This document shows positions 844 through 38,677 of a stretch of DNA of 64,000 bases, piece after piece. The notes under the pieces were generated by a model that searched no databases, was not told where the DNA came from, and saw only the letters and a list, made by a program, of their open reading frames with translations. Every line of letters begins with the position of its first letter. Positions within the stretch are counted from its first letter, which is position 1. Made by a program: the position numbers and the translations under genes. This DNA is from Botryllus schlosseri. Taxonomy: Eukaryota. The stretch is taken from assembly GCA_051294905.1 (NCBI GenBank), contig CM119371.1, positions 29,638,001 through 29,702,000 of the forward strand, written 5' to 3'.

Positions 844-998
844 CTGATAATTGAATAAAACCCATGATACAGACTGGCATCCAGCAAAGAAAATCAGATA
901 CAATAATCCTGGTGAGTTTACGTTGCATTGCAGCACGCCGTTTGTTTTTGTTGCTACCCACGCATGAAGATTTTGGGACCTTCCTATTGTTTGCCTTT
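844..998 (-). CDS. GPCR exon: ICL3-TM6
   Basis: KANNRKVPKSSCVGSNKNKRRAAMQRKLTRIIVSDFLCWMPVCIMGFIQLSG; acceptor tttaacAG, donor GTatag; LGR/RXFP-type SDFLCWxP motif. Confidence 0.92.
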
Positions 999-3900
999 CT
1001 GTTAAATACGATTCCACATTTTAAACTCTTCATAAATAATATTGCAATTTACAGCGATGCGATAATATATGCAGCTTGTACACTTCTATGCTAAGTTATC
1101 GTGGAATGCTATGAGCACAACGAAATGACTATATTTATTGCATATTTATCGCCCTATAAAAGAAGTTTCGTAAGGATATATCGAAATTTATCACCCCACA
1201 CGATAAATGTTGTACGACGCATCGTGCAATAGCTTAGGAAATATTTCAGTTATAGTCGACAACTCTGGATAAATAGTTAAATATTTTGATTCAATCGTGA
1301 AATACGATCATGCCTAGATATTGCTTTACTAAAAATATTGCTTTCGGCTAAATCTTTTCTTGTACTTATGCAAATGAAAATATATGTATTTGGGACTTGT
1401 AGGATATAAAATAGATCATTGCAAGTTCTCTTCTAGAATCATCTGTCACAATATACCGAACCATAAACGCAGTTGTTCAACCTTGCTCCGATAGAGTAGT
1501 TTGTTTGTCTTATTCACAACATTGGCGCTCATCAACTCATTAGGTCATTTGCGCCCACATAATAATTTTAGTAAGTAGTCTTTCGATGTATATTAGTCAG
1601 ATTACGGACTACTTCCATTCACACGCTCTTCTACCATCGGTCTCTATCGGTTTCCGTGCGTCCGTGCCTTGTCCTTTTGCTGCCAATTTCCGGCTCGGCT
1701 CAACTTCATTCTTTGCTTTTCGCAAACATTTTTGATATTTCTAATAAACCTCTTTCGGACAAGACAATGCCAATAAAAAGGGATCCTTATTGTGGGTATA
1801 TAAAAAACGTATTTACACTGTACCTGTACAACGCGACGTAGCACACGAGCATGAAGAAAAATGCAAGGAAGTTGATCAACAGCAGAACAAACGAGTACAT
1901 CCATGATACGTCGTCTTGGTCAGGAAACAGCGTGGGGAGGCAAACGGTATGGGTGGAATAGAATCCGAATTCATATTCCGGTTTTATGGGATTGCTTGGA
2001 TTGATCTGAGACATGAGTCCTCTCAATTTACTCCATTCCGTGCTTCTGTGTGAATTATTGACGATTTCTGAGATTTTGCGAATGTGATTGTTAAGTATGG
2101 ATGTGATTACGTGTCAACATCGTCTTGCGCTGTTCCGTTGTTCATCAAACGAAGCCAATTTATCAGATGTTTCTTTTCCGTTTGATTGACTTTTGTTTTG
2201 AACATCAGGGTGTCGTTGAACCTATGAAAAATCGAGATAGCTGAATTACTGATATGCTACATTTAAGCTCATTTTTCTCAACACAACATTATCCTGTCAG
2301 AGATTTTATCAAAAAGAAACCGTTTCAAAAATTATTTCATGCAACGAAGCCACTTTCAATGCAAACGATATGGAACTGGATTGTTTATGTGGGAATTCAG
2401 TCAATTTTCTTCTGCACAGTCGAGGTGTTTTCAAGACGGAGGTGCGAAGGAACCATCTTACACGGTTATCAGGTACGCAGCACTATTCTTCCTGTCCACA
2501 CTATCCAGGAGTGCTTAGCGACCAACAGGCAGCCACAATACTAGATTTGACTTACTACCTACCTCCCGATCAAGAATACGCTCTGTCATTATGCCACGTC
2601 GTTGGTCCTATTTATTTAGTTAATATAGACCAGTGGTCGGGAACCTTTTTCGTCTGAAGAGCCATGTTAGCCCTATATTTACCATTTTAACTCCCAAAGA
2701 GCCATACATGTCAATCTATTGTTACGTCACAATTGAGAATTCGTGACGTCATGGTAGTACTAATTCAAGCTCACTACATGTGACTCGTCGTGGGCGCCAT
2801 ATTTTCACTGTAAAAACTCGTAGGCTACTAATCATCCTGTGATAGCGCAATTCATCGTAAATAGCTAATGGTATATAATTCATTATACTACTTTAAATTA
2901 CTGTAGCTCTGATTCCGAAAATCTTAATATTGATCGACTTCTCAAATCGGCGGTAACATAAACGTTGCACTACACCAGTGGTTCTTAACCTTTTTTCCTC
3001 CAGCGCCCTCTTTCCAAAATTATCGTGCCCTAGTGCCCCCCACTCCATATTGTAAGGACTGTAATAAAGACAATGGGTAAGAGGTCGGGCTGTAACAGCA
3101 CATCGTCAGCCCCGCTAAAAACGATTGTTCTGCGCACCCCAAGCGCGACAAAACAAACTTCGCGTGATTTCGATGATTAGCAAAGTTTGTGTGACCAGGT
3201 CGACCTAGGCGCCAAAATTGTCTATAATGCATGAATGAATAGGAGGTAATTGCATATAAATTACGCTATTAACTTTTTATCCTATCAACCAACGTAGTCA
3301 GATTTACCAGTAGCGCCGAGTGAGCTATTGTATTGGAAAATGAAGGCCACGTAATTAATAATTAAACATATTCGGGCGTGCCCGTTGCTACAACTACTTC
3401 GTTACATGTTGTTATTTTGTTACCTATTGTCCGCTATATAGCACTGTTGGGATGACTCGAGTCAGACTCGAGTCACCTTTTCGTATGACTTGACTTGACT
3501 CGAGTCACTTAGCTAAAATTACTTGACTTGACTTGACTCGGCGTATCAAAAATGCGGATTGACTCGTGACTTAGAGCAAAATTCACGAGTCAATTTCGAG
3601 TCATCAAGCAATCGATGTCGATCAAAATCATCGTATCTTGAATATGTTCGGATTGTACGCGAAACGCTGGTGTAACCTATGAGAGCGACCAATCATTCAC
3701 TGATCGTTCGGTCTCTCACAAATAAATTGATCGCAAACGAAGTGATCGAAGCTTACAGCTTACGTTGTCGTAAACTAGTATAGTAAAGTAATTTAATAGC
3801 AGAATGTCTATTTCTGTTCTCTGTTCTTAACTTAACCAAACCTTTTGCTTTATTGAAATTGAATTCCAATATAGTGCGGAGGTTGGAATTGTATCATATC

Positions 3901-9900: not shown

Positions 9901-12900
9901 TTACTAACAAGTTGCTTCAATATCGATAAAACTAAGTACAAAATTAGAAATATGTCTAAGAGCTATATCTTATACCCAAACGAGCCATATATGGCTCCCG
10001 AGCCAAATGTTCCCGACCACTGATATAGACTATAGAACTACGATGGTCAATTATGTATATCTTACATCGAGCTCAAATCACATTCCGTCGAATTCTATTC
10101 TATGTTGAATCAGTAAAACTTTTCGATGAACAGTGAACTCATTAGGTGAACCGTAGCATACGACGTTCAACATCAATATCGACTAAACCAGTGGTCCTTA
10201 AACGCCCAGGAAGCGATATGGGGGGAGCTTGCGTCAGGGGGCGATATGGAGGACGCTGAAAAAATGCAGTCTCAGTAAATGGTGTACTAGTGTAGTAGGG
10301 GCGTTATTATTAGGGATTATCTAGTAGAACGTTATCTCCCTGAGTTATCATTACAAATTAACAGCCGACAAAATCTGTTGGATCCCGTAATTTTTAGTAG
10401 CGATGCGCGCGAACATATACCGTTTTTTTTCGCAACGAGTTCCCATATGAATGCAGTGGTTTACTATAATTCGTTTAAAATGAATTCCACGTACTTTTAG
10501 ATCGACAATTACCCGTTAAGACACTCTTTTATCGCCGGATCGGGTTATTTTGTACAGGATGTTTCGAATTGAACCCAGCAGCTCACAACGCGCCGAAATT
10601 GAATAGGCACTGTGCTACTTCTGTTAGTCAGAGCCTTTTGTACTTGATAGACATTCTCTGAAGTTTTTTCGCCAAATGATCAACAAAAAATGCGTGTATT
10701 TGAGAGCTACAACATGAGATTTTCAGAATATTTCTTCATCGTATGATGGAGTATTTTACTGTTTAGTGATGTGACCCACAAGCTAATGTTCCCCTCAAGC
10801 TTCGCACGTGCGCAATTGCGCAGTGCTGAGACGGCCTCTGCGCACAGGAAATCTAAACTGCCCCCGATAAATCCGAAGTGATGACTTTTTTATAGTCGTT
10901 ACGCACTGTTGTCCATCGGACCGCGCAGTGAGTTGGTGAGTGCGCGCAGACTCGTGAAAAATTGGAGAGAACACTGCCACAAACTCACCTGAAGGTTATA
11001 TATTACGGATTAATTTATTGGAACAAGCCCTACATTCATGTTGAAGTTAATAACTGAGTGCATTACTATTTCAATGTGAGTGAGCAAAAAACTTTGCCAC
11101 ATTCTCAATTGATTTACTAGCTACCAAGTCAATGAATTATAACCCAATACTATTAACTAGCCTATTGTCAATCGGAGAGGAGAGGTGAGTTCGACCTCTA
11201 ATCCATTGCATTCTACTACAGTCTTTAAAATATGGTGGAGTTGAACGTAGCCTATAGGCAATTTTTGAAAGGGGGAGCTCGAGTAAAAATGTTACAAACT
11301 ACTGGACCAAACTATCGGAAGAGGACATTTGCAGATTCGTCCTTGATGTTTTGCGTCATACCCATGTTGCCTATAGTAAAACCATGATACACATACCCAC
11401 GATCTATTCTACTGCATACGAAATATCCATACCATCTGTGTGTGATATGCATATGCCGCTAGATAAGGAAGGTGCTGAGATAGCCTTGTAACGCCTTACT
11501 AGTTTGGAACTACAACGTTCTTCTGACCCGTCCTGGGACCGAATCCATGGCCGTCTATTCAAGAAGCCGGACGCTCCGGCATTCCGTCGTGTTTTATTTC
11601 ACTTTTAATCATGATATATGTATGAAATTAAATAACCATGCTAAGGAATCCCTGTATTTACGCTTGGTCTAGAGAAGATTGTTCCTCGCACGGTTTCGCG
11701 GAGACGTCAGCATTTGGGAGGAATTCCTGGTGTGTCAAAAAGCCCAGAGTGACAATCGTTCAGCCGAGTCAGGATGTCGACAGCAGAGACGAAGATACGA
11801 GTACATGAAAGACGAGAGTAACCGACGGTGAAAGATCGCCCAGAAGATTACGAAAAGTGAAGAAGACAATGACCATTACACATGTTACAGTTGTGGCGCA
11901 TGTGACGTTATCAGGCGACAAGCGTCACTGATATGTCAGTAAAACAAACAAACAAACTTACGATATATATTTCAGAAAGTAATCTTCGACAGAACTGATC
12001 ACCGGTATGCATCCAAGCATAATAGACATAATCCAGGAAATCGCGATTGCTATCATTGCTCTCTTTATGTTCGGAGTTGAAAATGGTCTATAATCAATGA
12101 AAGCATATATGACCTCCGAAATGCTAGAAACTGTCGATTTTAAATTTCTAACATGGAGTTAAAAAGCAGGGCTGCGGAGTCGGAGTCAACAGAGTCGGAG
12201 GTTCGCTCATTTTACTTTGATGGTGTCGGAGTCTCTTTCTAGAATGCATTGGAGTCGGATTCGTGAAAAAAAAAATCCTGACTGGAGTCGGAGTCGGCGC
12301 TTGTAAAAGTGCAATCGACTCCGACTCCAACTTCTTTAAAATGAAAACAAATGCTTTCAAAGTTCTCTTAAAATTGCTAATAACAAATAAAATTAGGTTT
12401 GTACGTACCAACAATCACAGTTATTTGTAACTTTATTGATAAAGCTGGACATTTATTGCAAATTGTAATTCAATTGGTTAGAGAAAAATTTCAACCAAAT
12501 CACGACCAACACAGAATTACGGATGCAGTCACAAATTGATTCATTGTTTTTGGAATTATACCATGATATTATGAAAAAGTGAATACATCGTCTGGTTTTG
12601 TAAGTAACAACATCACTCGTAACATTGATGAAAATATAACCAAACACTGCTTCTCACTTGATAAAATCTAATGTATTTATAGTAAATAGCTCAGCCATAT
12701 GGATTGAACAAATGTTGAGAAAGGGTGCAATATCCCTAGTCCATGAATACCTGACTAAGTGCATATAGACCAGTGATGCTCAACCGCGCCTCTCAGAGCC
12801 ACATGCGGCTTCAAGGTAGCCTTCTTGGGGCTCTGATTGACCTCTAAATATGCCATAATATACAATAGACGACAGTAGTGTGCCGCAACAGATTACTCCA

Positions 12901-15900
12901 TGTAACAAAAAAATTAGTTGAGCCGATTTTTTTGATATTTCCTATACCCTATTCCTGAGTAAAACATTTTGCTGGCATTCTTGTACCACGAGTATCGTTT
13001 AAAATGTCATTTTAAGCTTTTTAACCCTTCCGCACCCTGTTTTTCAACCTTCTTTATTAAATGCCCTTTTAGCTTGGACGTCACAATGATCCACCATTTA
13101 ATTCATAATAGGTGGTAATTAGTGACAATGAGTTTCTCAGTCTTAGGTAGTCATCATTGGCTACAGCAAGCAATCTCAAATTCCATTTCGCTTTGTTCTG
13201 TAAATGCACATATCGTGATCGTGGTGTACTGAGTTCAATCTTATCATTGGGTAAAGAAATTGTCAAAATTGTTTACAAAGTCAAAAAAATTTCAACCTGT
13301 ATTTCGTTTGTATCGTAGACGTTCTCACTGCCAATGAACCATAGCCTATATAAAGTCTATGGATGAACTTATCATTTAAAGTTTTACAACTTGTAGTCAA
13401 CATTGTTTAGACAACATTGTCAGAATGAAGCAGTGTTAGCACAACTTCAGTGTTGTCTGCCAACAACTGCTGCTGTTGAACTTTCTTTCTCCATTCTTGG
13501 CAAGCTACTTAGTAAGGCCGGACACTTTCTACACAGGAATGTAAGAAATCATCTTTCGTTGTACTACAACCGTTTTTGATTATTTCTACCATAACGCGTG
13601 ATGTAACGACTGGAATTCTTTATAGGTCCAGATTTCGTTAAAAGTATTTTATTTTTCATGTACAAATTTGTCAGTTTTTCGAGTCAAATAGGTTTTTCAT
13701 GCCAAACTACTTCGTAAGAACAGACAGTTTCAACCAGAAATGAAGATAAGTAGTAAAATTCTAACATTATGTTTGAAAACACCTAATTTACATACATGAC
13801 ATCAAAATTGAGTCAAAATAAAGTTTTTCAATGTCAGAATATGTCAAAATCTTGATTTTGTAGGTTAAAAAATCTCCACATATCACTTTGAAACAATTGA
13901 AATACAAAATATAGATAGAAGGATTTGTTATAACTTGAATTTAGCATGAAAATTGGAGACCAAGAAAAGATCTGAGCATTTCATATGATCTGCGAAACCC
14001 TCTGATGAAATTTGGATTGGCTTATGAGAGACCGGCATGCAACGTCATTTCCTATCAAATAATCTGGAAGGAACCCCGAAATCTTGTGGATGTCTGTTAT
14101 TTCTTTATGGTGGCATTTCAAAGTTCCGAAGAACTACAGAAATACTTCATATTGCATATCTTTCTAGGCCATCCGCTTAAACACCTATTCCGCATAACAG
14201 TAAGTTGTCACTGCCAAAATTATCAGGAAAAAAGCTCCAGAAGACTCAAAAGGATTTGAAGTTGTAACAAATGACTCCGATGACAACGACATCATCATCA
14301 TCATCTCTCGTATAGATATAAACTCAGAACCACCCTTCCCGAAACAACACGAATTTCATGGTTTCGTAAAACACGGAATTCACTAAATCAAATGCGGAAC
14401 TTTTGACTTCAAGGTTGCAGCTAAGGAACAAGCTAGATGTTCTTCAGCGAGAAAAAGGCATGTCCGATTTTCAAGTTGTTTCTCAGTGGCGGGTAGGCTA
14501 CTCTTTGGCTATGCAGCAATGTTGACAACCTATTTAAAGAAATAGGAATTGCTCATGACCGAAGACGGTGATAGCTATACCTAAAGTTCAAAATGAGTCC
14601 TCCATTGTACTGGAGATCAAGTTCCACCTCTAGTCGTTGGCCATTCTTTCCAAATCATAGAAGCTAACAAAATTAGGAAGTTTCTACTTGATAGTATTGA
14701 CTATGCCAGATTATATACGTATGACTGGTAACTCTGCCAAGATTTAAAAATGATTGACTTCTTGAAAAGATTTATTGAGGCAATACAGAACATTCTTGTT
14801 TTCTTTGTTTATGGGACTCCGGAGCTGAAACTGAACACTGTTCTCGAAACAATGTATGAAAATGGATTAAAATGTACATGGAAAAATGGAGAGGGTATGC
14901 CCTAGTCCAAATATGGGTGATGTAAGCGGGGAACATGGCGAAGTGTTTCAGCAGGATATTATGATTTGGGAATAAGATACTAAGGAAAGTGTTGTTGCAT
15001 CATGGTGGGGTTTTTTTTTGGTCCATAATACCAGAAGATGTCACGCAAAAAACAAACATTTCCGAAATTTTTTTGAACTGTTAGCATCCTTATATAATCT
15101 ATTGTAGCCGATATTTGTGCATATTATTTCTTTTTGTCCGTGTGTTTGGACGTCGAATAAGGAAATATGCTGATTATTACAGGGAAATTTTGGGCAAAAC
15201 GAGAAGTCAAAAAGTGTCTTTTCTCGAAGAGTGGGGATACTTCAGAATTGTTTTGTATTCTCGTGATAAGTTTAAAATCACAACATACAATATATGAAAA
15301 TTACTACTCAACTAAAAATGTATCAAAATTTTATTACATGGTGTTATCAGTTGAGCCGCGAATCTTTATAAAAAAAAAACGTATAAAAACTTTTGCTATG
15401 GCTGAAAAATATCCTTCCTACGTACTTGTTTGATAAACGGAACGGTCTAAATTCTGGTCTCAAAGTTTTCACTAGAAATATTATTATCGTAACGTCAAAA
15501 ATGATATCGAAAACACATTGACACTGTGAAAAACCAAGGTATCTAAGCAAGTTTTTGATCCGTTTTTTAATAACCAACTCATGTACAGTAACTCATTCCG
15601 CAAATCATGAGCACATTGTCCGGACTGCAGTTTGCACTACAACATCTAATCCAATAATATACTGTTTCTAACTTGGTGTTAGTTGTTAATTCAATCGGAA
15701 GCAATGAATCAAGCAATCTTTCAGCAGAAGACGAACAACTCATTGATTTACGAAATGTCCCTATTTTTAAAACTGTGTTTCCGGTGTCAGATCATACCTC
15801 ATTACTGTCTGCAATCGATGAATTGTTATCAACACCATCGTGAAAACAGATTGCTCAGAACCGATAACCAGCAAGGCGCCTAAAATGGAACAAGTGGTGC

Positions 15901-18900
15901 TGGTTCTCCATTTAATATCCACATTGCAATAAATGCCCTCGACTTCGATGGCCTTGATGCATATGGAAATGGTGTATATCTGTAACGGTTCGTAAGTAGA
16001 TATATAGACGTTGAAACAATGTAATCGTATTCGATTTCATACCCCCACGAGTAAGTCAGAAATGGATAGACTCAGGATGAGTAATTTGTTGACGTTTGAA
16101 TGCGATCGATCAAATCCTCGGCTAACGGAGTACACGATATCATGTGATGTTAATCCAGCTACGGTGGTACATCCGATGATAGCGATAATACCTGTAAAAT
16201 GACATTTTGCAATTTTATTTGCATTCCTATAGTATTTCCAGAGGAATTATTTGCTGTGAGGAAACTTCCAATTTATTTGAACTTGAAAGTAACCAATTCG
16301 AAGCTTTGTATTCGAACTCCATTTACCATGCTTGTGAGTAACTGGATTTGAAATTGAACTTGACTTGACGATGTCCATTCTCCAATGAAAGTTGAGTCAT
16401 TTAAAGCGGATTTGCATTGAATTGACAGTGCGCATGACGGTAAATGAATTCAGGACTTCGATCGCGACTTCATTCTTGATCAAGATGTGGATCCGAAAAC
16501 TATAAATCTGCACTGAATGGTGTTGTTCGGATAACCGTTTGCTACAAATCGAATGAAATTTCAATCTACCTAATTTTATTTTGTCATTCGAAAATTTTCA
16601 TTCGGGCATTTCTACCTTTTACACATGGCTTATAGTTAAGGTTGCTATTCTGGCGATACTGTGGCCGTAAAAGCAGAATTGTGCGGCCGTCAACTTGGAA
16701 TTTGGATTTACGAATTGGCTAGCAAATATTTAAAAGCTTTTAATTGAACTTTAAAATTTTCTTCGAGGTTGCCGCGACTTAGGGTGATCTGAATTTTCGA
16801 TTTTAATATAATATGGTTCCTGCATCTGAGCTCATCAGTGCATATGCATTTTGCGGAGGAAAATAATGTGCCTAATTAGGAAATATTAATTGGGAATCGT
16901 TTGCATCACACGGAAAACATTTCTCCTGTACCTTTGGGCGATTCCGATATAGTATCACTCAGACATGGGGTAATCGCGATTAGTAATCGTAATCGATTAC
17001 GACGATTACAGCATTTTCAAGTAATCGTAATCGCAATCGATTACATTCGAAAAAATTCCGAAGTAATCGTAATCGTAATCGACTACTTCCCATATCTAAT
17101 CGATTTCTTTGTGAAAGAACGATTACTTTTTATTTGTACAAGGACTATGACATAAACTGAACATTCGTGAACAAGGAAGATGTATCATACCAGGTTCATG
17201 ATAACACAAACGTCTGATTTTTAAATGTGATTGCTCATTATTACGTCAGAAGTAGCCTACTAGCTTTGCTAGTCATTGCGTAAGAAGTATCCACAGTAAA
17301 TAGATATTCGATGTACGTCACGTACATTCGCGTGATTGTAAGAACACCCGACGTGCTGTATATCAGGTTATCAACCCGTTCCACACGCCAGTACCCCGGA
17401 GCAGGATAATTAATCACCACTCTATCAAGTAACTTGTGTATTGATGTTTGGTTATGCAAACGCAGTTTGACCGTTGCTGCTTGGCGAGCAGTAGGCCTAT
17501 GTAGTACGCACGTACACCGGACAGAGATTTGAAATTTTGTACTCGTCAAATATAACATTACGGTTTCCACAACGAAGCAATAAAAATCAACGGTTGCTGA
17601 TATATATCACAACCGAGCCGTTTTTGCCGTTTCTCGTAGCGGCAGCTTGCCGTACATTATCTGTATTAAGATGAAGGCAGAATTATATGTTCTCTTCATC
17701 TTATTCCAATATTACTCTACTTGAAACATGCGCTAATCGTTATTTCATAATTCTTTACTCAACATTGGGACTTGCCGCCATAGCCATGGGCTTATATATC
17801 ATGTTAGCGTGGGTTGTAGACAGAATCAGGGCCGAAACAGCTATTCGTCCCCCAGTCCAAACGTTAGTCTTTGGCCCCCATAGGGTGATAATTTCAAGTT
17901 GAAGACTGAATTTCGTCAATAACATTGGTAATCGCATCACATTATCATTAGTTTTTATTCCGCTCTCTCTCTCTGCCCCCGATGGTCAGGTTTACCTGTA
18001 GAGCTGGGGACACGTAATTCATAATTATAACGTCTGTTATCTTGTCATAATTACTTTAGTGAATGTAGTTAATTCGTGATTTCCGGTATGTTATATAATC
18101 AAAAGATATTGTTGTAACCCTAACGTAGCAGACTAAAAGAAAAACCTTCGTGAGATGCACACACAAATTGTCATGTCTTTAATGCTCTGTGGGTGTCCGG
18201 GTGGCATTTGCATTGTGGGCTCGGATTGGAAGGACTGGACTATAGTAGTCACGCCCACCCAGCGCGGCTATTGACAATGGACACATACCCTCAGTTTCGG
18301 CTAAGGTCTTTCTTTAGTAGCACACTTCGTGAAGTCGCGTGTTGGTCGAAATTGCATATGTCTTTTGGTGTGTCGTAGCACGGTATTGACTGGAACCTAA
18401 ATGCCTATTGCTATAAATTAGGGTTGCATTTAAAACAAAAATAAATTTAAATCGAGCATGTTTACAACATACCCTTGTTTAAAACATGATTTTTTTTCAT
18501 GCTATTCCATTTTTTTTCAAGCCTTGACGTCACCAATGTGGATTGACATTGACAATTGAAAATATAGGGTAAATATAGCTCCTTTGACGAAATATCTGTA
18601 CTATAACTGTTTAACCGAATATTTTGAGGGGTTCCAACCATCTCATATCGATGTACGTCGGCCAAATCGGGTGGTAATTGTGGAAAGCTTTTACACAATT
18701 ATGACATAATTTTAAAACTTAAAAAAACACAATTTAGTTTTTTTTAAAGCCTTTGTTTAAAGCACTGTTTAAAACAAGTTTTAAACAATGTGTTTCAAAC
18801 AACCATTTGCTTCAACTGCATGCCTACTATAAATTATATATGCTTTTTTGTTGAAGGGGAGACGTATGCATTCCAAAATCAAGCTTATCTAGAGAGAATT

Positions 18901-21900
18901 TTCAAGTAAATTAAATCTTTCGAGAATACTCTATAATTTTTGTTGGTTTACGAAATACTATTGAGTCCCCCCCCCCGAGCTCGCTCCCCAGCCTATTGGG
19001 AAATTTGGGGTGCGGCAGTCATGGACCCGGTAAGAATGCAATTGGTTGGATGCGATAAATCATCTTCTATAAAAATGGGCAAGGGGTACATTATGACGTA
19101 ACAAGCAAATGACGCATCTTTTTTAAATGGGGTTTGTTATCTCATTAGGCCTTTTCAGCTTTCCAATATAACTTCCAAAATGCAAAATAAATGTAATCAT
19201 GAGTAATCGTGATTACTTTTCCAATGTAATCGTAATCGTAATCGACTACTACCTGATTTTGCTGTAATCGTAATCGTAATCGTAATCGCGTCATTCGGAA
19301 GTAATCGTAATCGCAATCGATTACATTCATGAAGTAATCACCCCATGTCTGGTATCACTATGCTGACAATCCTGGTAAGTGGTCAACATGCAACAAAGGG
19401 TTAAGTAGCAATGAACCCATCCGAAGATGCATGATCTTAATTTATATATGTGCCCTAAATTTATGAAGATACCGTCCATCTGCTACCTGGAAATCTGATC
19501 ACATTGGCGGAGAATGAATAAATAGTTGATAGTAATATGTGCTAGCCTATTACCAATAATATTGACGAAATGCATTCGTAATTAGGAATATATTTTCGTG
19601 CTCTCATAGCGTTGATATACTCGCGATTTTCGTGAAGTATAGCGAGCAAGCCGACATACATGAATATAGGAGTCTAGAGTTCGCTGTCACCTGTTCCGGC
19701 GCCGTCATGGAATATGTAATCTATAACGGACTTGCTACGAATATAATGTGCGCGCGTTTTGAGTAATGATATGCATGAAAGGGAGTGTCTTAGAAAACTG
19801 AATTGCTCCACGTCCAGTAGTGTTGCTGATGAACAGGGCGATTTGTTGACATGTCAAAATTGTAGCGGTAACTCAAAAAATTTGTTAAAATTGTTTTGCA
19901 ACCTGCATTTCGATTGTGTCGTAGATGTTTGCACTGTCGGTGAGCCTATCGTTTAATATTTTATATCTTGTAGCCTGCTGCTGTAGACGGCCCAGTTTCT
20001 GCTCATTGTGAATCATAAACCGCCAAATGAAACAAAGAGGTTGACAAGGTGTTATGTTCAACGCACCGCAATATCCTAACTGAAGCAAGAATGTGTGAGT
20101 ATTGCGTGGTCCTTATATCAAGAAGCGCATGATGAAAAATTGTGATGTAAACATGGTCAGAATGAAGCAACGCGGTGGGCCACCAGCAGTGTACGCACAA
20201 CGTCAGTGTTGTCAGTCAACAACTGTTGGTATTGAATGTTCTTTCCCCGCAATTGGCACGCTATACATAGTAAGGACAGACACATTCTACCCATGAATGT
20301 AGGAAAGTATCTTTTGTTGAACTACAACAAATTCCTAATATTTCTAGCATAATGCGTGATGTAACTACTGGAAATATTCATAGGTCCAGCTTTCACTTAA
20401 ATAAAGTTTTTGTGGTTATTTAGCATCCATCTGGTACATTACGACTGTCCGCTGTGATGCGGCCGTACCCAATATAGGTAATCGAGATGTGGTCGTGACT
20501 AGCAACAAAGGTTGGGCACCCCTGGCTTATAGTAAAACCAATACGAAATAAAATATAATGAACCTTGAATTGAATACACAACTGACAATATAGAGTAGGC
20601 CTTGTAAACAAGATCGAGTTTGATTCCTATTTCCTATACTAGACATGATTCAAGTATTCTCTGTCGACGGTATCGAGAGGTTCGATTTTTTAATTGTCGA
20701 TATGTCGCCCGCACTTGAAGAATGGGCTATTTTACCAGAAATTACTTACTGAGTATCCACACCAACGCCACCACACCCGTATATCTAATCAATGACGTCT
20801 CATCGGAAAACGCGCTAACTATGCAGCCTGGTTGACATTCGTCAGCTCCGGAGAGACAGTCGTGGTATCCGTCGCATACCTACAAAATCGAGAGTTTTTT
20901 TTTTATATCTGGACGTCTTTCACCGTAGCCTATGTTCTTGGATTGTTTGTTCAATAATATACGAATAACGGATGTTCGAATATATTACTATAGTGACTAG
21001 TAAGTACAGTGTCGCACGGATTGTCTGTAGAAAACCTTCATTGTTGTCCTTCTACGCCAGGGGCGGGCAACTTCTTCGATCGGCGGGCCATGATCTCGTA
21101 AAATGAAGTACTTGGCAGGCCGGATGACAAAATCGGTACATTATTCGCGTATTTATTCACCTATAGATGCAATAACTCGATTTAATGTAAACTTCAAGTT
21201 TAATGCGTAGACACCAAAACAGTATTTAATGGATTTATTAATATAATGTTCTTCAATAGCTGTTGAGGTCAATCAGACGTATGTCCAAAAATTAGAATTT
21301 TCACCAAGTCCTTGGAACTCCGACATGTCGGATGAATAGAAACCATTTAGTAAAGACTTGACGTGAACATCAGCTGTATTGTAAGTGTAACGCAGCCTTA
21401 TCTTGTTGTTAATGTTCAACGTCGATAATGTTTGCTTGCAAATGCATGTAGAGCCGAACAGAAAATGATATTTTCATGACCATCTTTCTCAGGTTGGAAA
21501 ACTTGGATTGATTCTGTGACGCATAAAATTTTGTAATATTTTGCAGGCCGCTCAACTTTTTGTCGCGGGCCGTATGCTGTCCGTCACTGTTCTACGTATA
21601 TTATTACAGGTCCAGGTGTGGATAATCATGCATCACAATAGGAGCACATTTAAACAAAATCTGCCACTACAATTACTGGATTGAAGAGGATTTCGTCAAA
21701 AGTTCTTGCTAAATCGCATCACGTGATTCCTGCCGGATTGGACGAGAACCGAAAATATGAACGACTGTACGACGTGTATCCAGGAATGAATGACTTATAT
21801 TCTGGTCCTCTAGGTATATAGAAACTGCAGTAGTCTTTCTCGTCCCAAGGCGAAATATATGTGACACCAATCTAGTCCAACCCATTAATCGATGTGCAAG

Positions 21901-24900
21901 CCTTGACGGACGATTTTGCCGGGCGATTTCCCGATCTACTTCGTTATTTTAGCCCAGAGGTTCTCAACGGCGGCCCGCAACATCGTCGATTATAAAAGTA
22001 ATTACTACTGATCCGGTATTGTTAAATATTAAGTTAACTGCTTAGCTGTTTCGTCGCACCGTTTCTGTTTTGTTTATTGATGACTGGTTTCTTGATATTA
22101 TCGAGTTGAAATTGGTACCGTTTTCATAATCGGTATTCGTCTGATGACCTCTGGGTTAAGAGATTCCAGCTAGGTAGTACACTTTTAAAGAGTGTTACAA
22201 CTGTTACATTCACCAACACTGACTCGAACAGATCTCTACGGGGAAAGGGAAATTAAACTCAGTGTGGAACAATAAATTAGCTTTCGCAGAAATAAATGGA
22301 AAACCGATGTGTCTTATCTGTCGAACAACAATTGTCGTAAAGAAGCGAGGGAGTTCAAAATGACATCAATGACGCAGTTCCTTCCGGAGTACATACATAC
22401 CCAGCTCTTCTTAGGAGAAAAACGTTGCTAATACAGTCTTGTACAAACTAGTGGAAACTAAAACTAGAACTAGTAAATTTTTCGAACTTACAAGTCACAA
22501 CTATATCTAGAACTAGAACTACAATGTTTTCAAAATCCGCAACCAGAACTAGAAGTACACACCTTTTAAAACTCGCAACTAGAACCAGAACTAGAGCTAC
22601 TCTCCTTTCAAAACTACCAACTAAAACTAGAACTAGAACTAATGACCTTTAAAATCCGTAACTAACTGAAAGGCAACTAACTATATCAGTGGCGCACAAT
22701 GTAATTGATGTATTAAATGTCCAGTTAGATGTGTGATGTGGTGGATTTTTGTTCTTTGTGACTCCTTGAAAAGTAGAGGTTCCCCGAAGGCTTGCAAAAT
22801 AGCGTTGGGAACACCTGGGCATTTTACGGCCCGCTGGGGAAATTCAGACTGCGAAAAGTTGCTTGGAATTTTGATCTATACATTTCAATGTGTACTAAAC
22901 CATTTGCTGTATACCGGAAACACGTTTATTTTGAAGTCTGTTTAGTGTTTTTTATCCACCGTGTTTATGTAGCCTGCATTCGTCGTATGCGTAATGTAGA
23001 TTCAAAATAATGTCTATATAACATAAACACGCAGTGACCCGGCTGAGGCTGCGAGAAGGCGAATTTCGGAAAACCTGCCTGTGAAACTGCCAACGCAACA
23101 AGACTATTTCACCAAGCTAGGCACTGCTCGGAATTTAGTGGCCAAGTTGCAATATCCCATATATTTTGTTGTCTCAATAAAACAGGGTTATCATATTTTG
23201 AGATCTGGAAAGGACACTCTTCACGGGCTGCAAAAGTTACTATAGCGGACGAGAAAGTTGGGTGGACTAAAAAAAAGAAAAATAAGGTCATTTTTCCGAC
23301 TTGACTCTCGAAATACCGTTGTCCGTATGATCGAACAACATTTCTCGTAATTCGTGGACTTTTTGGGCATTTTAGGCTAAAAAGTAGGTCAAATTGGCCT
23401 AAAAATAACGATATTCGGGAAGATATTGCTGAAAAAAGAACAATTTTGTTTTTTTATCATAGTTTTGAATAATTACGTGGGATAAATATTATTTTGGGGC
23501 ATTAGCTTTACCTTCCTTATTGTCTAATAGCAACACATCCACTCAGAATCTTTTGCTAACAATGTAATTCAGTGCTTTCAATTTAGAAATGATTATAAAT
23601 TAATACACCGCAAATTATAGTGCAAACTTTTCACTCATCCCGCCAACGTAATTCCAGCTTTCCATTCTCAGAAAAATAATTCCAAACCTCTGTCGCAGGG
23701 GTTCCAAGTCAATAAATTTTGAGAACCTAACTGATTTGGATTCCATTCTCCTAGACAACACATTAAAATTATTTTTATTGGAAATATCACACATAGAATC
23801 GACATTTCCAAGGGACCCTGTTTCGAATTTGAAATTGGAAAGAGATTTCGACCCCTAAACTCACCCGCTTGCTACGTCACTGTCAGTAGTGACAGCTCTG
23901 AGCTAACAATGGCAGTGCAGTGCAGTGCAGTGCAGTGCACATGCACGAACATCATTCAACAGAACACCGGTATCTCGATTCACGCAAAACGACGGCACGT
24001 GCTTACTAGTTGTTCCTCAACTAATATTTTTTCAAATGCAACTACCTAGTACTAGAACTAATGAATTTTAAAAATATCCAACTAGAACTAAAACTTGAAC
24101 TACTCACTTTTCAATATCCGCAACTGGAACTATAACTAGAACTACTCAATTTACAAAATCCACAACTAGAACTAGAATTGGAACTACTCAAAAAAAGTTA
24201 GTTATAGTTTACCGTTAACTATATAAAAGGATAGTTTGTACAAGTCTATGCTAATAGCTTAGTGTGAAGCCTAGCAATCCATATTTCGAAGCATTGTTAA
24301 AATTGCCGACAACGTTACACATCGCAGGCGGTGTTCAAAATGTACTTGGAATATTGCTAAGGCCAAGAAGTCAGCTTGAGATGATGAGATCCGAGACAAC
24401 TTTAACAGACTGCTGAGCGAATTGCCTGTTCCCGGAATTAAGCAATATGGGCAACATCACCAGGCAAATCTTGAAGCTGCTGTTGTCTGATTTAACCGTG
24501 TCCAAATGAATAACACCAAAATCAGTTGATCTTTTATCGCAGTTTCTGAAACAAGTTACTGCGTAGGCTACTTTAGCTAGCATCGGACGAATCCATCGAC
24601 TCCACGTACATTGCATAGCTAATAATCTGTGGGCATCTTCTCATAGTGGACACATTTGAAGAGTAAATGCTAGCAGGGCTAACGTGGGGACAAAGCTGAC
24701 TTCTGTCTGGGCTCCACGCTCCAGCCATGGTAGGAAAGCAAAAAGGGTTGGTTGATTGGTTCGCTCAAAAGACATCCCGAAACCTCAGACTTATTTTCCT
24801 ATCACTGTATTTTGCGTGAGCGGTGGAGAGCTCAAACTGACAATGACGTGACGAATACAATTGCCGTAATTGGCTCAAGCATTGAAACCGAGAGTTCAGT

Positions 24901-26262
24901 GGTGGAAGGATTTGAAGGTGCAAATGCCTATACTTGGCAATGCATATGCAACGCACGTTCCATGAAGTTTCTACCAATAGTAAGCTTATTTAGGAGAAAA
25001 ATCCGCATGATTTACTTACGAAACCAGAAGATAAAATATTAAGGCAAATAACAGCAACTGCAAACTTACGAACGTTGTCCATGAATGCTTTCGAATGCAT
25101 AAACAGGTAATAAGCGCCCCTATACGACTGGTACACACATTAAATTTAATAGAAGACTACGATTACTTGGTAATAATATTGTGCGGCCCGCAGCACTTTT
25201 TGATGGTAAAATGCGGTCCGTTATACATAGGAAGTTGAGAACCCCTGTTTTACCGAAACTTTATCTTAGCGTCATCTGGTCAATGAACCGTAATCCTCAC
25301 CGATGTTCCGAGAATATGCTGGTTGTCGCTGCGGTAATCATCATCACAATAGAAATACGTGCAATTGCAATCGGCTGTACATGGTAATTCAGTGCAATCC
25401 TAAAATGTAAGCTGAAGTCGATCGAAATAGTAGAATGCAACAAGAGGGTTGAAATAACTATATTCAAATTTACATAGCAATCGAATAGACTTTTATTGCA
25501 TTACCTAAGACAACAGATCCATGATTTCAGACGCAAAGCATCCGATGGTGACGATCATCATCAGAGGGTTATATTTCACGCTCCACAATTATGCAATATA
25601 TACTATACTTACAGACATGAGTCTCGGTACAGAATGTCGAAGAAGATATTTCATTATATATTTCGTGTCTACTATATTTACCTGATTTTTGCATTGTTTA
25701 ATCATCGACTGGTCCTGATATGTTACATTGTTACAGATGTGCCTGTATAGTGATATCACATTTTGATTAACTTCAGAACGGAGTGAAGATGAAGAAATGA
25801 AACTGCCATTGTTGCAATGTTTAACTCATTGTTACTGATATTACATTATCTTCGAGTGGTGGAAAATGATAAGCCAACGAATCGTTCATATGTTACACAA
25901 TGATATAACACTTTATGTAAGATTGCGAAACCAACGACTGTCGGACTTATATCTTATGTTACTAAAATATACCTGTAAGGTAAAAATGCTTTCATATGTT
26001 TTTTCTATTTCGTTTTATGTCAGAGTGGGAGGTGACGCTTACGAAGAACATTTAAGGAGTGTAAAGTAGAATGATTAAGAACTACTAAAAATAGATACAT
26101 CTGTCGTTCACTTATAAATATGATATCATGATTATCGTCCATCTCAGTAAGCAGAATAATTTCACTACTTACTTGATGTCGGAGGTGAGCCAGTCATACG
26201 AGATTCGTACTGCAGTACATGTGGTCCATCGACGAGAAGAATTAAAACTCAATGTCGCATAC
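844..26262 (-). CDS. Multi-exon LDLa-module class A GPCR (LGR/RXFP/GRL101-like 7TM), partial: join(26173-26262,25682-25742,25301-25399,20750-20879,16043-16191,15798-15979,11962-12087,2111-2221,1824-2045,844-998)
   Basis: Ten exons with GT-AG ends and matching phases give one open frame: Cys-rich region, LDLa (FYC..VCDGYHDCLSGADEC), TM1 (VVALVWILSIIAIIG), TM2 (LSLSISDLLVGIY), ECL1/TM3 (KWRTSTTCSILG..SEQSVFTMVLITIHRL..PF), TM4 (ISWIMSIMLGCIP), ECL2 (YSTHTVCLP), TM5 (INFLAFFFMLVCY), TM6 (IIVSDFLCWMPVCIMG). TM7 not found in 1-843. Confidence 0.9.
1824..2045 (-). CDS. GPCR exon: distal ECL2-TM5
   Basis: STEWSKLRGLMSQINPSNPIKPEYEFGFYSTHTVCLPTLFPDQDDVSWMYSFVLLLINFLAFFFMLVCYVALYR; phase 2/2 GT-AG. 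Confidence 0.92.
2111..2221 (-). CDS. GPCR exon: ECL2 insertion
   Basis: FNDTLMFKTKVNQTEKKHLINWLRLMNNGTAQDDVDT; acceptor tttcatAG, donor GTaatc; the 65-bp intron removes an in-frame TAA; phase 2/2. Confidence 0.8.
3960..6315. mobile_element. TIR element E with 8-bp TSD, nested in D
   Basis: TIR CAGTGGCGGCTCGT / ACGAGCCGCCACTG; TSD CTATTTTG (3952-3959, 6316-6323). Confidence 0.88.
4940..5880 (+). repeat. Degenerate ~185-290-bp tandem array inside element E
   Basis: Recurrent core ccgatctcggtatggaacatcgtcaaaatcaa..gacc..accggcttttg at about 4945, 5233, 5455, 5640 and 5850. Confidence 0.7.
7140..7462 (+). repeat. Tandem duplication of about 160 bp
   Basis: Two copies of ttttrcgctttaatcgygctcgaggacc..gtacggtctcataccctrtgattcgaaccatc..gaattcacatc. 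Confidence 0.8.
8219..9471 (+). mobile_element. hAT element family C with decayed transposase C-terminus, inserted in the right TIR of B
   Basis: TIR TAGAGCCCGACCGAT; TSD TTAAGAAC; ATCGG subterminal motifs; 9100-9230 reads VPSERL..FST..DHRSALLGERAEKLCFVNCNL (hAT dimerisation domain, frameshifted). Confidence 0.88.
10189..11150 (-). mobile_element. Truncated inverted copy of family B
   Basis: Starts CAGTGGTCCTTAAAC; reverse-complement similarity to about 7480-8210. Confidence 0.65.
11400..11590 (-). mobile_element. Possible decayed tRNA-derived SINE
   Basis: Minus strand has a B-box-like GGATTCGGTCCC after a tRNA-like head; degenerate. Confidence 0.3.
11962..12087 (-). CDS. GPCR exon: ICL2-TM4
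   Basis: PFSTPNIKRAMIAIAISWIMSIMLGCIPVISSVEDYFLKYIS; donor GTaagt; phase 2/2. Confidence 0.92.
12167..12335 (+). mobile_element. One end of a hAT MITE with GGAGTC/GACTCC arrays
   Basis: CAGGGCTGCGGAGTCGGAGTC start; partner end not found. Confidence 0.65.
13442..13579 (+). pseudogene. hAT transposase C-terminal remnant
   Basis: QLQCCLPTTAAVELSFSILGKLLSKAGHFLHRNVRNHLSLYYNRF* resembles the PTSxxVERSFS dimerisation motif. Confidence 0.7.
14400..15030 (+). pseudogene. Decayed DNA transposase, Chapaev3-type (CMC)
   Basis: 14907-15020 reads PNMGDVSGEHGEVFQQDIMIWE*..RY*GK, resembling the GxVSxExGERFHQDI..RYQG..M..YCW motif; superfamily assignment from memory. Confidence 0.55.
15798..15979 (-). CDS. 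GPCR exon: end of TM2, ECL1, TM3
   Basis: IYTISICIKAIEVEGIYCNVDIKWRTSTTCSILGALLVIGSEQSVFTMVLITIHRLQTVMR; WxxSxxC motif; phase 0/2. Confidence 0.93.
16043..16191 (-). CDS. GPCR exon: TM1-ICL1-TM2
   Basis: IIAIIGCTTVAGLTSHDIVYSVSRGFDRSHSNVNKLLILSLSISDLLVG; acceptor ttttacAG; 63-bp intron to the next exon; phase 1/0. Confidence 0.92.
17827..19029 (+). mobile_element. Family G element nested in F
   Basis: Ends CAGGGCCGAAAC..GGGGTGCGGCAGTCATGGACCCG; TSD GACAGAAT/GTAAGAAT (6/8); homologous to 50010-51153. Confidence 0.7.
18419..18826. mobile_element. Small hAT MITE (TTTAAA/AAACA motifs) nested in G
   Basis: TAGGGTTGCA / TGCATGCCTA ends; TSD CTATAAAT on both sides. Confidence 0.8.
20750..20879 (-). 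CDS. GPCR exon: C-terminal half of LDLa module, hinge, start of TM1
   Basis: VCDGYHDCLSGADECQPGCIVSAFSDETSLIRYTGVVALVWIL; LDLa CDGxxDCxxGxDE signature; donor GTaagt; phase 0/1. Confidence 0.93.
21058..21589 (-). mobile_element. Buster/Charlie-type hAT deletion derivative, family I
   Basis: TIR CAGGGGCGGGCAAC; TSD TTCTACGC/TTCTACGT; minus strand reads FSNLRKM..LFGSTCICKQTLS (GTF2IRD2/SPIN-like C-terminus). Confidence 0.82.
22434..24248. mobile_element. hAT MITE family J (AACTAG arrays) nested in the SPIN-like element
   Basis: TIR YAGWCTTGTACAAACTA; TSD TGCTAATA (22426-22433, 24249-24256). Confidence 0.88.
23913..23940 (+). repeat. (CAGTG)n microsatellite
   Basis: About five tandem pentamer units. 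Confidence 0.9.
25301..25399 (-). CDS. GPCR exon: Cys-rich segment and N-terminal half of LDLa
   Basis: DCTELPCTADCNCTYFYCDDDYRSDNQHILGTS; cattttAG / GTgagg; phase 0/0. Confidence 0.85.
25682..25742 (-). CDS. GPCR ectodomain exon
   Basis: HICNNVTYQDQSMIKQCKNQ; tatacAG / GTaaat; phase 2/0 bridges both neighbours. Confidence 0.7.
26173..26262 (-). CDS. GPCR ectodomain exon
   Basis: YATLSFNSSRRWTTCTAVRISYDWLTSDIK; ttttgcaacAG / GTaagt; phase 2/2. Confidence 0.65.
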
Positions 26263-28490: not shown

Positions 28491-28572
28491 GTTCATGGTC
28501 GAAAATGTATGTAGACCCCAACAAAGCAAGTAGTTTAATGTCCATCTTTCTCAGGTTGGCAAACTTGGACTC

Positions 28573-28830
28573 TGTTATGTTCTTGATCTTGTTCGAACAA
28601 TAACTCAATACGACGAGGTTGCAATATGAAATCAGTATATATTAACAGCAGAATAACTTTAAGACAGGCAACACGATCCAGAGTTCAGTTAAATGGAAGA
28701 CCACGAGACAACAGAACACAGGGTGTAAATGCAAGCACGACACACGAGGAAATAATGATTGGCTGTAATTACTAATCCTATAGAAAGAAAGAGTTGTACG
28801 ACACTAAAACGTAAATGCACGAACATAACA
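28573..28830 (-). repeat. 3' LTR
   Basis: TGTTATGTTC..GAACATAACA; three substitutions versus 38678-38935; adjacent PPT AGGGGAGGAC (minus strand, 28831-28840). Confidence 0.97.
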
Positions 28831-28864
28831 GTCCTCCCCTGTAAGTTGAGAGGGTTGCCCGAAT

Positions 28865-30037: not shown

Positions 30038-30046
30038 CTTTGGATT

Positions 30047-34048: not shown

Positions 34049-34694
34049 TCCAGAACTACCAATTTTAAGCCAACTCGAACTTCCGAACCCACCTGCACGG
34101 TTACAGTGCAAATACCTTTCACTTTCAGTGGCTTGTCGCCATACGCTACGAAAGAGCAATGGTATGCTGAGAGTTTCGGAGAGCCCAAAGTTTTGTACGC
34201 AGTCAATCCCACCATGGCGGAGGGTGCACCAGTGTCCCACTGTGTCGGCAACGGAATGCCGTTGATGCTGGAGTTGGTCCAGAGCTGGTTTCCTACGCGT
34301 CGATATAGTTGATCGATGTCGAAGGAGAGGAGTGGCACTGAGCAGAAATTGACGCATGTGACCTATTGCGTGATACTAGGTTTGGTAGACATGCACACAG
34401 GTTTGATATGAGCTTTACGACCACATTTCAGACATACTGAATGTCGATATTGACAGTCTTTTCTCTGGTGATCGATGAAACAGCGGCTGCAGGATTTCAG
34501 TCTTTCTGGGAAGTTGCCTTGGTTGGATTTGGAAGGTTTTTTCCCCTTCTGATAACTTACCGTCATTTGGTTGACGACGGAAGTGTCTTTACCGCTACTC
34601 TCGCCTTGGATAACCCTGTCAGTTTCCAGCGTTCTCACGTATGTTGCGGCTACTTTGAGAACGTCGTCAAGGGATGGATTGGTTTGTGTTAGAC
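34049..34694 (-). pseudogene. gag C-terminus (two Zn knuckles) and aspartic protease fragment
   Basis: CSRCFIDHQRKDC, CLKCGRKAHIKPVC, in-frame TAG at 34363, then QWDTGAPSAMV; rejoins DEHRGQNIFGLDW when 31742-34048 is removed. Confidence 0.9.
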
Positions 34695-35864: not shown

Positions 35865-36109
35865 TGTTAGACAATGCCGTCTCACATCCGCGTGCGGCGT
35901 TTCTTTAATGATGAGATCGCGCATTAGCTCATCAACTTAGCTCTGATCACAGCCATCTCTTGAGCATATGAAGTTGCAATCTTTGGAGATTCCGCGTAGA
36001 GTAGCAATCCAATCGGCGTACGATTGTCCCGGTTGCATTTTACAGTTGTAAAATTCGTATCTGGCTGCTTGTACAATGTACATGTATGGAGTCCTTGAAG
36101 TGTGTAGAC
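35865..36109 (-). pseudogene. gag: gag central fragment
   Basis: VQAARYEFYNCKMQPGQSYADWIATLRGISKDCNF..*VDELMRDLIIKE; one stop and one frameshift. Confidence 0.88.
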
Positions 36110-38627: not shown

Positions 38628-38663
38628 GATATATGTTCGTTGCAGAAATAACTATGAATCAGA

Positions 38664-38675
38664 CGTCTGACACCA
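38664..38675 (-). promoter_or_regulatory. Primer-binding site, tRNA-Leu-like
   Basis: TGGTGTCAGACG begins 2 nt inside the 5' LTR boundary. Confidence 0.75.
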
Positions 38676-38677
38676 AT

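Follow-up and report, generated by a model that had tools for sequence, protein, structure and literature searches.

The window analysed here, a stretch of 64,000 nucleotides of Botryllus schlosseri DNA, carries on its minus strand a gene that almost certainly belongs to the ascidian LDLRR-GPCR family, in which LDLa modules are joined to a relaxin-receptor-like transmembrane region without intervening LRRs. This family was described by Kamesh et al. 2008 (PMC2396169), whose available text reports 14 LRR-less LDLa receptors in Ciona, states that the ligand is not known, traces the family ESTs mostly to blood tissue and haemocytes, proposes lipoproteins or large complexes as ligands, and terms the family a Ciona lineage-specific innovation. 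In the literature searched, the term 'LDLRR-GPCR' is found in that paper only. The Botryllus gene is one further copy of this already described family, and the LRR-less architecture itself is not new. The original prediction had mentioned LRR-less LDLa GPCRs reported as orphans in ascidians, with which the available text of that paper agrees, and had ranked the gene as the best candidate for uncharacterised biology, a ranking that was overrated, as the architecture is that of a published, expanded family. The overall explanation that we lean towards is a relaxin-receptor-type GPCR of this family that functions as a self-restrained sensor.

The gene model consists of ten predicted exons running from position 26262 to 844 (Table 1), with GT-AG boundaries at all nine introns and consistent phases. 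The joined chain is 441 codons long through TM6, contains no stop or frameshift, and encodes six hydrophobic segments. The two most upstream exons were called by splice scores and phase, with homology that is weak or absent. In the case of candidate exon 1, comparison with Pfam and with the relatives gave no significant match; a CUB identity is unsupported, Pfam being negative and the best blastp hit, within the CUB domain of P0284, having an E value of 1.7. Within the whole model, candidate exon 2 aligns in register to the penultimate LDLa module of both P0020 and P0017. The acidic D-x-S-D-E motif of this penultimate module is lost in exon 3, and the last LDLa lacks its third cysteine, as is the case for 59 of 61 pattern-matching relatives. 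No TM7 exon was found in positions 1-843, and neither a start codon or signal peptide exon nor an upstream ligand-binding LDLa array was found within the window. For the region beyond 26262, tblastn of 166 proteins, an LDLa HMM, N-terminal blastp against a reversed null and splice scoring gave nothing convincing, a weak match near 27030 (E 0.01) being at the null level. Short exons are hard to detect, and tblastn overlooked even exon 3.

Table 1. Predicted exons of the receptor gene and the neighbouring retrotransposon (positions in the window)
Feature	Position	Strand	Description
Candidate exon 1	26173..26262	-	Phase 2-2; ectodomain piece, low confidence; top splice score among 19 candidates in 25400-28570
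Candidate exon 2	25682..25742	-	Phase 2-0; N-half of degenerate penultimate LDLa; splice score ranked second of 19
Exon 3	25301..25399	-	Phase 0-0; end of penultimate LDLa and N-half of last LDLa
Exon 4	20750..20879	-	130 nt, AG acceptor and GT donor, phase 0 to 1; LDLa C-half, hinge, TM1 start
Exon 5	16043..16191	-	Remainder of TM1 (Cys for Asn1.50), ICL1, TM2
Exon 6	15798..15979	-	ECL1 and TM3; Cys3.25; H-R-L at DRY position; preceded by 63-nt intron
Exon 7	11962..12087	-	ICL2, TM4, beginning of ECL2
Exon 8	2111..2221	-	First half of ECL2 insert; phase-consistent, aligned with relatives in model
Exon 9	1824..2045	-	Second half of ECL2 insert, C-L-P-T plug motif, TM5; preceded by 65-nt intron
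Exon 10	844..998	-	ICL3 and TM6; Asp6.44 and Trp6.48 retained; ends in phase 1
LTR retrotransposon	28573..38936	-	2.3 kb upstream of exon 1, same strand as gene; RVT_1, RNase H and integrase domains in 31789-28868

Exon 4 runs from the C-terminal half of the last LDLa through a hinge that contains a cysteine and on through the first half of TM1, confirming the central claim of the original prediction that a single LRR-less exon encodes both the LDLa half-module and the start of TM1. This arrangement is supported by a family-built LDLa HMM, which scores the exon at 21.7 bits (E 2.6e-5) where the reversed window reaches 7.6 bits at best, and by alignments of the whole exon with Styela clava P0017, P0018 and P0020 (41-45% identity, E 1e-5 to 1e-9). 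A fourth Styela protein, P0021, is 31% identical to the exon, and the last two LDLa modules match P0020 with an E value of 5.5e-13. In the domain check that had been suggested, the Pfam Ldl_recept_a match (positions 21-37, 14.3 bits) falls under the 24.1 cut-off for what is a half-module, and the LDLa assignment draws on the family HMM and the alignments. Neither intron flanking exon 4 contains an LRR motif on either strand, and only two isolated matches to an LRR pattern occur in 25400-64000, the 5' end of the gene not being among the exons found. The same junction is common among related proteins: in 103 of the best 150 relatives, the LDLa ends at most 60 residues from TM1 without an LRR motif, at a median distance of 35 residues, which is also the distance in the Botryllus gene.

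Family membership is evident from a relaxin/INSL3-receptor-like transmembrane region, an LDLa module, an LRR-less junction and a tree grouping with ascidian members. From TM1 to TM6 the gene is 39-43% identical to family members; for instance, it is 41% identical to Styela P0020 over 420 columns (E 1e-103). All three trees, which took in no RXFP1/2 and no cnidarian, placozoan or sponge LGR, place it within a set of Styela paralogues, with support of 100/99 and 100/97 in two of them. The suggested 7TM phylogeny thus groups the gene with Styela paralogues and apart from GRL101, in trees that lack RXFP1/2. The Styela paralogues P0020, P0018, P0017 and P0025 (XP_039271686.2), annotated as GRL101-like or uncharacterized, share 39-43% identity over ~400 residues with the Botryllus protein, and have the junction, hinge, insert and C-L-P-T motif in common with it. 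They differ in having 2-8 LDLa modules by pattern, whereas in the window the array could be followed through its last two modules, and none is a one-to-one orthologue. In Ciona, the relative P0032 corresponds to ci0100153810 of Kamesh et al., in the LDLRR/LGR-like cluster, and ci0100144713 and ci0100148400 have the same last-LDLa and hinge pattern as the Botryllus gene. The Ciona LDLRR-GPCRs, as presented in the available text of PMC2396169, likewise have an RXFP-like 7TM with LRR-less joining of LDLa to TM1; unlike in them, position 1.50 of the Botryllus protein is Cys and its penultimate LDLa is degenerate.

Among solved structures, human RXFP1 (PDB 7TMW) is the top sequence match of the relative P0018 (E 2e-23), and a wide fold search with P0018 returned RXFP1 with a Z score of 29.5 (rmsd 2.0, 258 residues aligned), with TSHR tied within 1 Z. 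In addition to the 7TM fold, the hinge, the ECL2 cysteine, Asp6.44 and Trp6.48 are shared with RXFP1, a type C1 LGR. RXFP1 differs from the Botryllus protein by the LRRs that separate its LDLa from the hinge, by a short ECL2 and by a C-F-P-L motif. Of the type C1 hallmarks, the LRR block between LDLa and hinge is absent from the Botryllus protein, as is a short ECL2 with C-phi-P-phi, and the I-S-x4-L-L hinge is present as F-S-x4-L-I. GRL101-type receptors of molluscs (type C2 LGRs) are similar in their several LDLa modules, hinge motif and orphan status, but their hallmark, an LDLa array followed by LRRs, does not describe the LRR-less junction here; they also have an ECL2 of 15-20 residues (15/15) and D-R-x (16/16), and lie apart on a 100/100 branch. 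The automatic names 'relaxin receptor 1-like' and 'GRL101-like' carried by family proteins are misleading.

The absence of the LRR block is accompanied by an ECL2 insert of ~65 residues, such that the distance from TM4 to the ECL2 cysteine is 87 residues, compared with 15-20 in GRL101-like receptors. The insert scores 14 bits against a tunicate-like insert HMM, and is skipped in two of the three Ciona family models examined. In an AlphaFold model of P0018 (pLDDT 92, pTM 0.87 over ectodomain and 7TM), it is folded as strand-helix-helix-strand. A known fold was not found: an Atlas search gave no usable feature match (TM <0.5), and whole-model fold searches were dominated by the 7TM. The plug motif that follows the insert, which counts 67 residues in the Botryllus protein, is C-L-P-T rather than the C-phi-P-phi of LGRs as defined in the accessible part of 10.1101/2022.01.22.477343. 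Neither the insert, the four-cysteine last LDLa, the hinge nor ctenophores are mentioned in the available text of Kamesh et al., and the insert and the ctenophore relatives described below are not described in the literature searched, which covered few subscription journals. The insert, the RXFP1-type hinge and the ctenophore relatives were also missed by the original prediction. The ECL2 insert likely stands in for the LRRs.

How such a receptor might be controlled is suggested by its hinge. The F-S-x4-L-I sequence aligns with I-S-x4-L-L of RXFP1, in which I396-S397 and L402-L403 are reported, in the accessible portions of 10.1101/2022.01.22.477343 and 10.64898/2026.06.10.731386, to be autoinhibitory or required. 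According to the former, the hinge and LRRs of RXFP1 keep the 7TM off, and once freed of its ectodomain the receptor reaches 70% of its maximal signal. The retention of the inhibitory residues makes hinge-restrained self-activation likely, and we tentatively propose, with somewhat less confidence than for the overall explanation, that LDLa modules sense a large ligand to relieve this restraint. The folded insert and the four-cysteine last LDLa would form a rigid cap that replaces the LRR block, a role that the predicted fold of the P0018 insert fits; the contact between LDLa and insert is itself a prediction. A lipoprotein, large protein complex or microbial surface would bind, probably on blood cells, the more distal LDLa modules, and binding would shift the hinge and TM7, releasing the hinge lock, after which TM6 would open for the G protein. 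Activation was originally predicted to differ from that of relaxin receptors. This holds insofar as LRR-based, relaxin-type activation is impossible where LRRs are absent; what replaces it is a proposal. Only part of the RXFP1 switch is retained, as the plug is C-L-P-T in the Botryllus gene and, in ctenophores, C-L-F-K in 17/20 with a shortened hinge. Equivalent ECL2 residues are also reported to be dispensable in TSHR and LHCGR. Counting against the mechanism in this particular copy are the Cys at 1.50, a penultimate LDLa without its acidic motif, and the upstream LDLa array that was not found.

The signalling of RXFP1 stripped of its ectodomain could alternatively be taken to mean that the 7TM of an LRR-less receptor is unrestrained and constitutively active, with the LDLa modules serving localisation or turnover. 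In keeping with this reading, the family as a whole has lost the acidic residue at 3.49, F-R-L being the commonest sequence there and H-R-L that of the Botryllus gene. However, the inhibitory hinge pair is the most conserved part of the ascidian ectodomain, Asp6.44, reported to stabilise the inactive state in RXFP1, is kept, and the extent of the expansion, together with the variability of the ectodomains, would point to a role in recognition; we regard constitutive activity as improbable. Less probable still is that an ascidian insulin/relaxin-like peptide is the ligand, binding through LDLa and ECL2. The proximity of the 7TM to RXFP1 among solved structures favours such a ligand, but relaxin binds LRRs and linker (10.1101/2022.01.22.477343, in the part available), the LRR surface that would bind it is missing from the Botryllus protein, and the accessible text of PMC11863921 reports RXFP/LGR3-type receptors to be lost in urochordates.

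Hinge-restrained sensing supposes a working receptor, and the copy in the window is probably functional. There are nonetheless signs that it may be decaying, namely a Cys in place of Asn1.50 (Asn in 148 of 150 non-gap rows), an upstream LTR element and spliced reads that were not seen. The LTRs of the element (28573-28831 and 38678-38936) are 98.8% identical over 259 bp, indicating a young insertion that may sit in an intron or have severed the 5' end of the gene. Two raw RNA runs, sampled to 6% and 13%, showed no coverage in any bin containing exon 4, 5 or 6, the species and tissue of these runs not being established. Across four sequencing runs over 11500-27300, none of the 15 joints listed was an exon-exon joint, a further 101 lying outside the listing, so that the suggested check for RNA over the junctions, although carried out on partly read runs, did not return the expected reads. 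Three small-share contig sequencing runs were repeat-dominated in the regions compared (X1, X2). Together with the degenerate penultimate LDLa and the upstream LDLa exons and start that were not found within the window, these features would fit a decaying or 5'-truncated paralogue in a birth-and-death family, from which no working receptor is made. This is a minority reading, rather unlikely in our estimation, given the open frame with its GT-AG introns described above, the retention of 16 of the 17 near-invariant family positions that could be tested, an end branch (0.81-0.83) that compares with a median of ~0.7, the difficulty of finding short exons, and the partial RNA sampling. The original description of the gene as intact is not borne out, as neither TM7 nor the 5' end was found, Asn1.50 is replaced and junction reads were not seen.

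Relatives outside the ascidians were found in ctenophores, where a clade in Mnemiopsis and Pleurobrachia has an LRR-less LDLa-TM1 junction, an ECL2 insert like the ascidian one and loss of the acidic residue at 3.49. A profile-profile comparison matched the tunicate and ctenophore inserts with a probability of 91% and a score of 29.3 over 62 columns, the highest null scores being 13.7 for 100 column shuffles, 19.7 for 100 block shuffles and 11.1 on reversal. The ctenophore length of 81-90 residues (20/20) is the same as in ascidians, as is the predicted order of helices and strands. The ascidian and ctenophore receptors are thus probably of common origin, judging from sequence comparison. The alternative, that LRR loss and ECL2 expansion occurred twice or that the ctenophore records are contaminants, draws on a core identity over 248 columns that is no higher between tunicate-like and ctenophore proteins (25.6%) than between tunicate-like and GRL101-like ones (26.9%), on single-sequence HMM tests of the insert, in which 0/20 ctenophore proteins exceeded 10 bits, no better than shuffles, and on the restricted sampling of LGRs in the trees. 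It is unlikely in view of the insert profiles, lengths and structure order, of named records from two species (Mnemiopsis KAL5261440.1, Pleurobrachia EukProt P000015), of a 100/100 ctenophore clade on a long stem in two trees, and of Ctenophora being the commonest phylum in two Atlas match sets. The main text of PMC4079206, PMC11797021 and PMC12716839, as far as available, does not describe LRR-less ctenophore LDLa receptors.

Assuming a common origin, LRR-less LDLa receptors with an ECL2 cap might constitute a fourth LGR-like kind, one family confined to tunicates and ctenophores, a suggestion that we make with some hesitation and under which ECL2 would do the job of LRRs in signalling. Such a patchy range could reflect either presence of the class in the last common ancestor of animals, with loss in all other lineages, or animal-to-animal gene transfer, the latter being a doubtful prospect. 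The Botryllus gene has at least 10 predicted exons, unlike ctenophore-type metagenome loci, in which the match lies within one ORF in 17/21; few introns and a long stem in the ctenophore clade would be in line with transfer by way of a retrocopy. Ctenophores nested inside ascidian sequences in two trees, one of which involved a long, compositionally odd row (P0118), but ascidian monophyly withstands the AU test (p 0.384), and so no direction of transfer is claimed.

Within its published family of orphan receptors the Botryllus gene is unremarkable, and its value lies at the level of that family. As LRR removal activates RXFP1, a natural family that lacks LRRs and keeps the inhibitory hinge is well suited to examining what restrains relaxin-type receptors, with the ECL2 insert as a specific candidate for the lock that replaces the LRRs. 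Should the family prove restricted to tunicates and ctenophores, it would be informative about the early evolution of GPCRs and about the transfer of genes between animal phyla.

The receptor gene occupies the minus strand of the window as a chain of ten predicted exons (table), all bounded by GT-AG and consistent in phase, that encodes 441 codons without a stop and six hydrophobic segments; neither an exon for TM7 nor a further 5' exon beyond 26262 was found within the window. Exon 4 spans the C-terminal half of an LDLa module, the hinge that links it to TM1 and the first half of TM1, and so LRR exons cannot intervene. That one exon carries both the LDLa end and the TM1 start, as the original prediction had observed, is confirmed by canonical splice sites, a family HMM and Styela clava alignments. 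With Pfam LDLa, exon 4 matches over half a module and below the threshold (14.3 bits), and against an LDLa HMM built from the family it scores 21.7 bits, compared with 7.6 bits for the reversed window; alignments to three of four Styela proteins span the exon with 41-45% identity.

Features of the receptor gene model and the LTR element, in window coordinates
Feature	Position	Strand	Remarks
Exon 1	26262-26173	-	rests mainly on splice score
Exon 2	25742-25682	-	rests mainly on splice score
Exon 3	25399-25301	-	GT-AG, in-phase chain
Exon 4 (LDLa C-half, hinge, first half of TM1)	20879-20750	-	canonical splice sites
Exon 5	16191-16043	-	GT-AG, in-phase chain
Exon 6	15979-15798	-	GT-AG, in-phase chain
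Exon 7	12087-11962	-	GT-AG, in-phase chain
Exon 8	2221-2111	-	GT-AG, in-phase chain
Exon 9	2045-1824	-	GT-AG, in-phase chain
Exon 10	998-844	-	GT-AG, in-phase chain
LTR retrotransposon	28573-38936	-	259-bp LTRs, 98.8% identical

The window model matches P0020, a Styela protein, at 41% identity over 420 columns (E 1e-103). A profile search with an E cut-off of 1e-30 gave 1,093 representatives, the best 150 of which were analysed; the other 943 may include other phyla. In 103 of the 150, the LDLa end lies within 60 residues of TM1 and LRR motifs are absent, the remainder comprising one with LRRs, 22 not scorable and 24 outside the strict junction pattern. By eye, these 24 mostly have a worn LDLa end at the same place, the exceptions being P0125 (GRL101-like) and P0156 (no clear LDLa module). 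In the last LDLa the third cysteine is missing from 59 of 61 pattern-matching rows and also from the window protein, a trait of which the literature searched gave no description. A look-up of 20 representatives gave a name for 14 (6 Styela, 3 Ciona, 1 Clavelina, 2 Pleurobrachia, 1 Mnemiopsis, 1 scallop), and 'tunicate-like' is used here as a tree label only.

In phylogenetic trees built with a molluscan outgroup only, the window protein nests among Styela paralogues, both in FastTree (158 of 163 rows) and in IQ-TREE (support 100/99 with 41 chosen rows, 100/97 with 24), a placement that points to a stolidobranch ascidian as the likely source. The accessible text of Kamesh et al. 2008 (PMC2396169) describes 14 Ciona receptors, the LDLRR-GPCRs, which combine 1-10 LDLa modules with a relaxin-receptor-like 7TM and have no LRRs; the majority of their ESTs came from blood tissue. 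The window gene is thus a further member of an already described orphan receptor family: the original prediction is borne out in what it observed and in part in how it read it, the junction being a trait already known from the family.

Decay of this particular copy is unlikely, even though Asn1.50, present in 148 of 150 non-gap rows, is replaced by Cys, the acidic motif is gone from the penultimate LDLa, and the 5' LDLa array is missing, with a young LTR element lying upstream. Two RNA runs, each read in part and not established as matching in species and tissue, also have zero depth in the bins with exons 4-6. On the other side, the 441-codon frame is open and 16 of 17 testable near-invariant family positions are kept.

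The LTR element has a domain order that we take to be of Ty3/Gypsy type. A stop near 30047 parts its RT/RNase H frame from the integrase frame, and two gag-like regions are visible by eye (38651-38052 and 34800-33991); it is possibly nested or rearranged. One copy of a 1.2-kb inverted duplicate (34695-35864 and 45550-46742, 88% identity) lies within it. Between exons 3 and 4, matching low-complexity blocks on opposite strands (22504-22664 and 24019-24190), possibly the two termini of a DNA transposon some 1.7 kb long, yield false exon candidates with high scores, and a 9.7-kb intron holds two tandem copies of about 160 bp (7140-7293 and 7301-7464).

Counted between the proline of TM4 and the cysteine of the disulfide, ECL2 of the window protein measures 87 residues. 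The median in 121 tunicate-like rows is 84 (115 have at least 74 residues; six are short), whereas LRR-type rows have 15-20 residues (15 of 15 measured) and RXFP1 has the short form. In an AlphaFold model of P0018, a Styela protein (97-row alignment; pLDDT 92, pTM 0.87), the insert folds as a strand, two helices and a strand.

A clade of 20 rows that includes Mnemiopsis and Pleurobrachia records shares the LRR-less junction with the ascidians; all 20 have an ECL2 of 81-90 residues, and none of the motifs listed for them has an acidic residue at 3.49. Between the ascidian and ctenophore insert profiles, the match has a probability of 91% and a score of 29.3 (nulls at most 13.7 in 100 column shuffles and 19.7 in 100 block shuffles), and the insert elements of P0153, a clade member modelled at pLDDT 77, follow the order of P0018. 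An independent listing, the Atlas, contains LDLa-plus-7tm_1 clusters in which Ctenophora and Chordata are the commonest phyla, and 21 of 57 metagenome loci score best on the ctenophore profile, 17 of them holding the match in one ORF. Counting against a close link, single-sequence insert HMMs score no better than shuffles between the two groups, and the core identity of tunicate-like rows to ctenophores (25.6%) is not above their identity to GRL101-like receptors (26.9%). Ascidian monophyly is not rejected by the AU test (p 0.384). Neither insert nor ctenophore group is described in the portion of the literature searched, which includes passages of PMC4079206, PMC11797021 and PMC12716839.

Several further records bear mention. 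The very long ctenophore models P0028 (Pleurobrachia, 5042 aa, 12 matched stretches) and P0065 have many such stretches, which suggests tandem receptor arrays fused by annotation. Two members of the ctenophore clade have additional domains at the N-terminus, P0149 (Mnemiopsis) one of F5/8 type C and P0154 three SRCR stretches, which hint at pattern recognition. The tunicate-like metagenome loci L020-L022, L040, L042 and L050-L052 each lie largely within a single long ORF and are possible retrocopies, found alongside multi-exon loci (L039, L044, L047, L054). The Ciona protein ci0100148288 (Kamesh supplement 1), which is not among the rows of the trees built here, bears LRRs and a short ECL2, and its position 3.49 is likewise not acidic; it is a candidate sister of the LRR-less family.

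The closest solved structure is RXFP1, which Foldseek ranks third, after TSHR entries. As reported in the accessible portion of 10.1101/2022.01.22.477343, ECL2 of RXFP1 acts as a plug in the orthosteric pocket, I396 and S397 in the hinge are inhibitory, L402 and L403 are required, and the 7TM without its ectodomain gives 70% of maximum signal. A 2026 preprint, in the part available (10.64898/2026.06.10.731386), confirms hinge inhibition and reinterprets ECL2 as transducing the signal. At the hinge the window protein keeps F-S-x4-L-I, and it also keeps the cysteine and proline of ECL2 as well as Asp6.44 and Trp6.48, but unlike RXFP1 it is polar at the second plug position, in the ECL2 cysteine motif, as is most of its family. 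Tentatively, the folded insert together with the hinge and the last LDLa would form a cap in place of the LRR block, to be released when distal LDLa modules bind a large ligand; a constitutively active receptor is less likely, as is one that binds a peptide. We keep this mechanism tentative because we infer the LDLa-insert contact and because the ligand class is that proposed in the available text of Kamesh et al. 2008 (PMC2396169). It is the ECL2 insert and its ctenophore counterpart, not the junction, that are worth following in this family.
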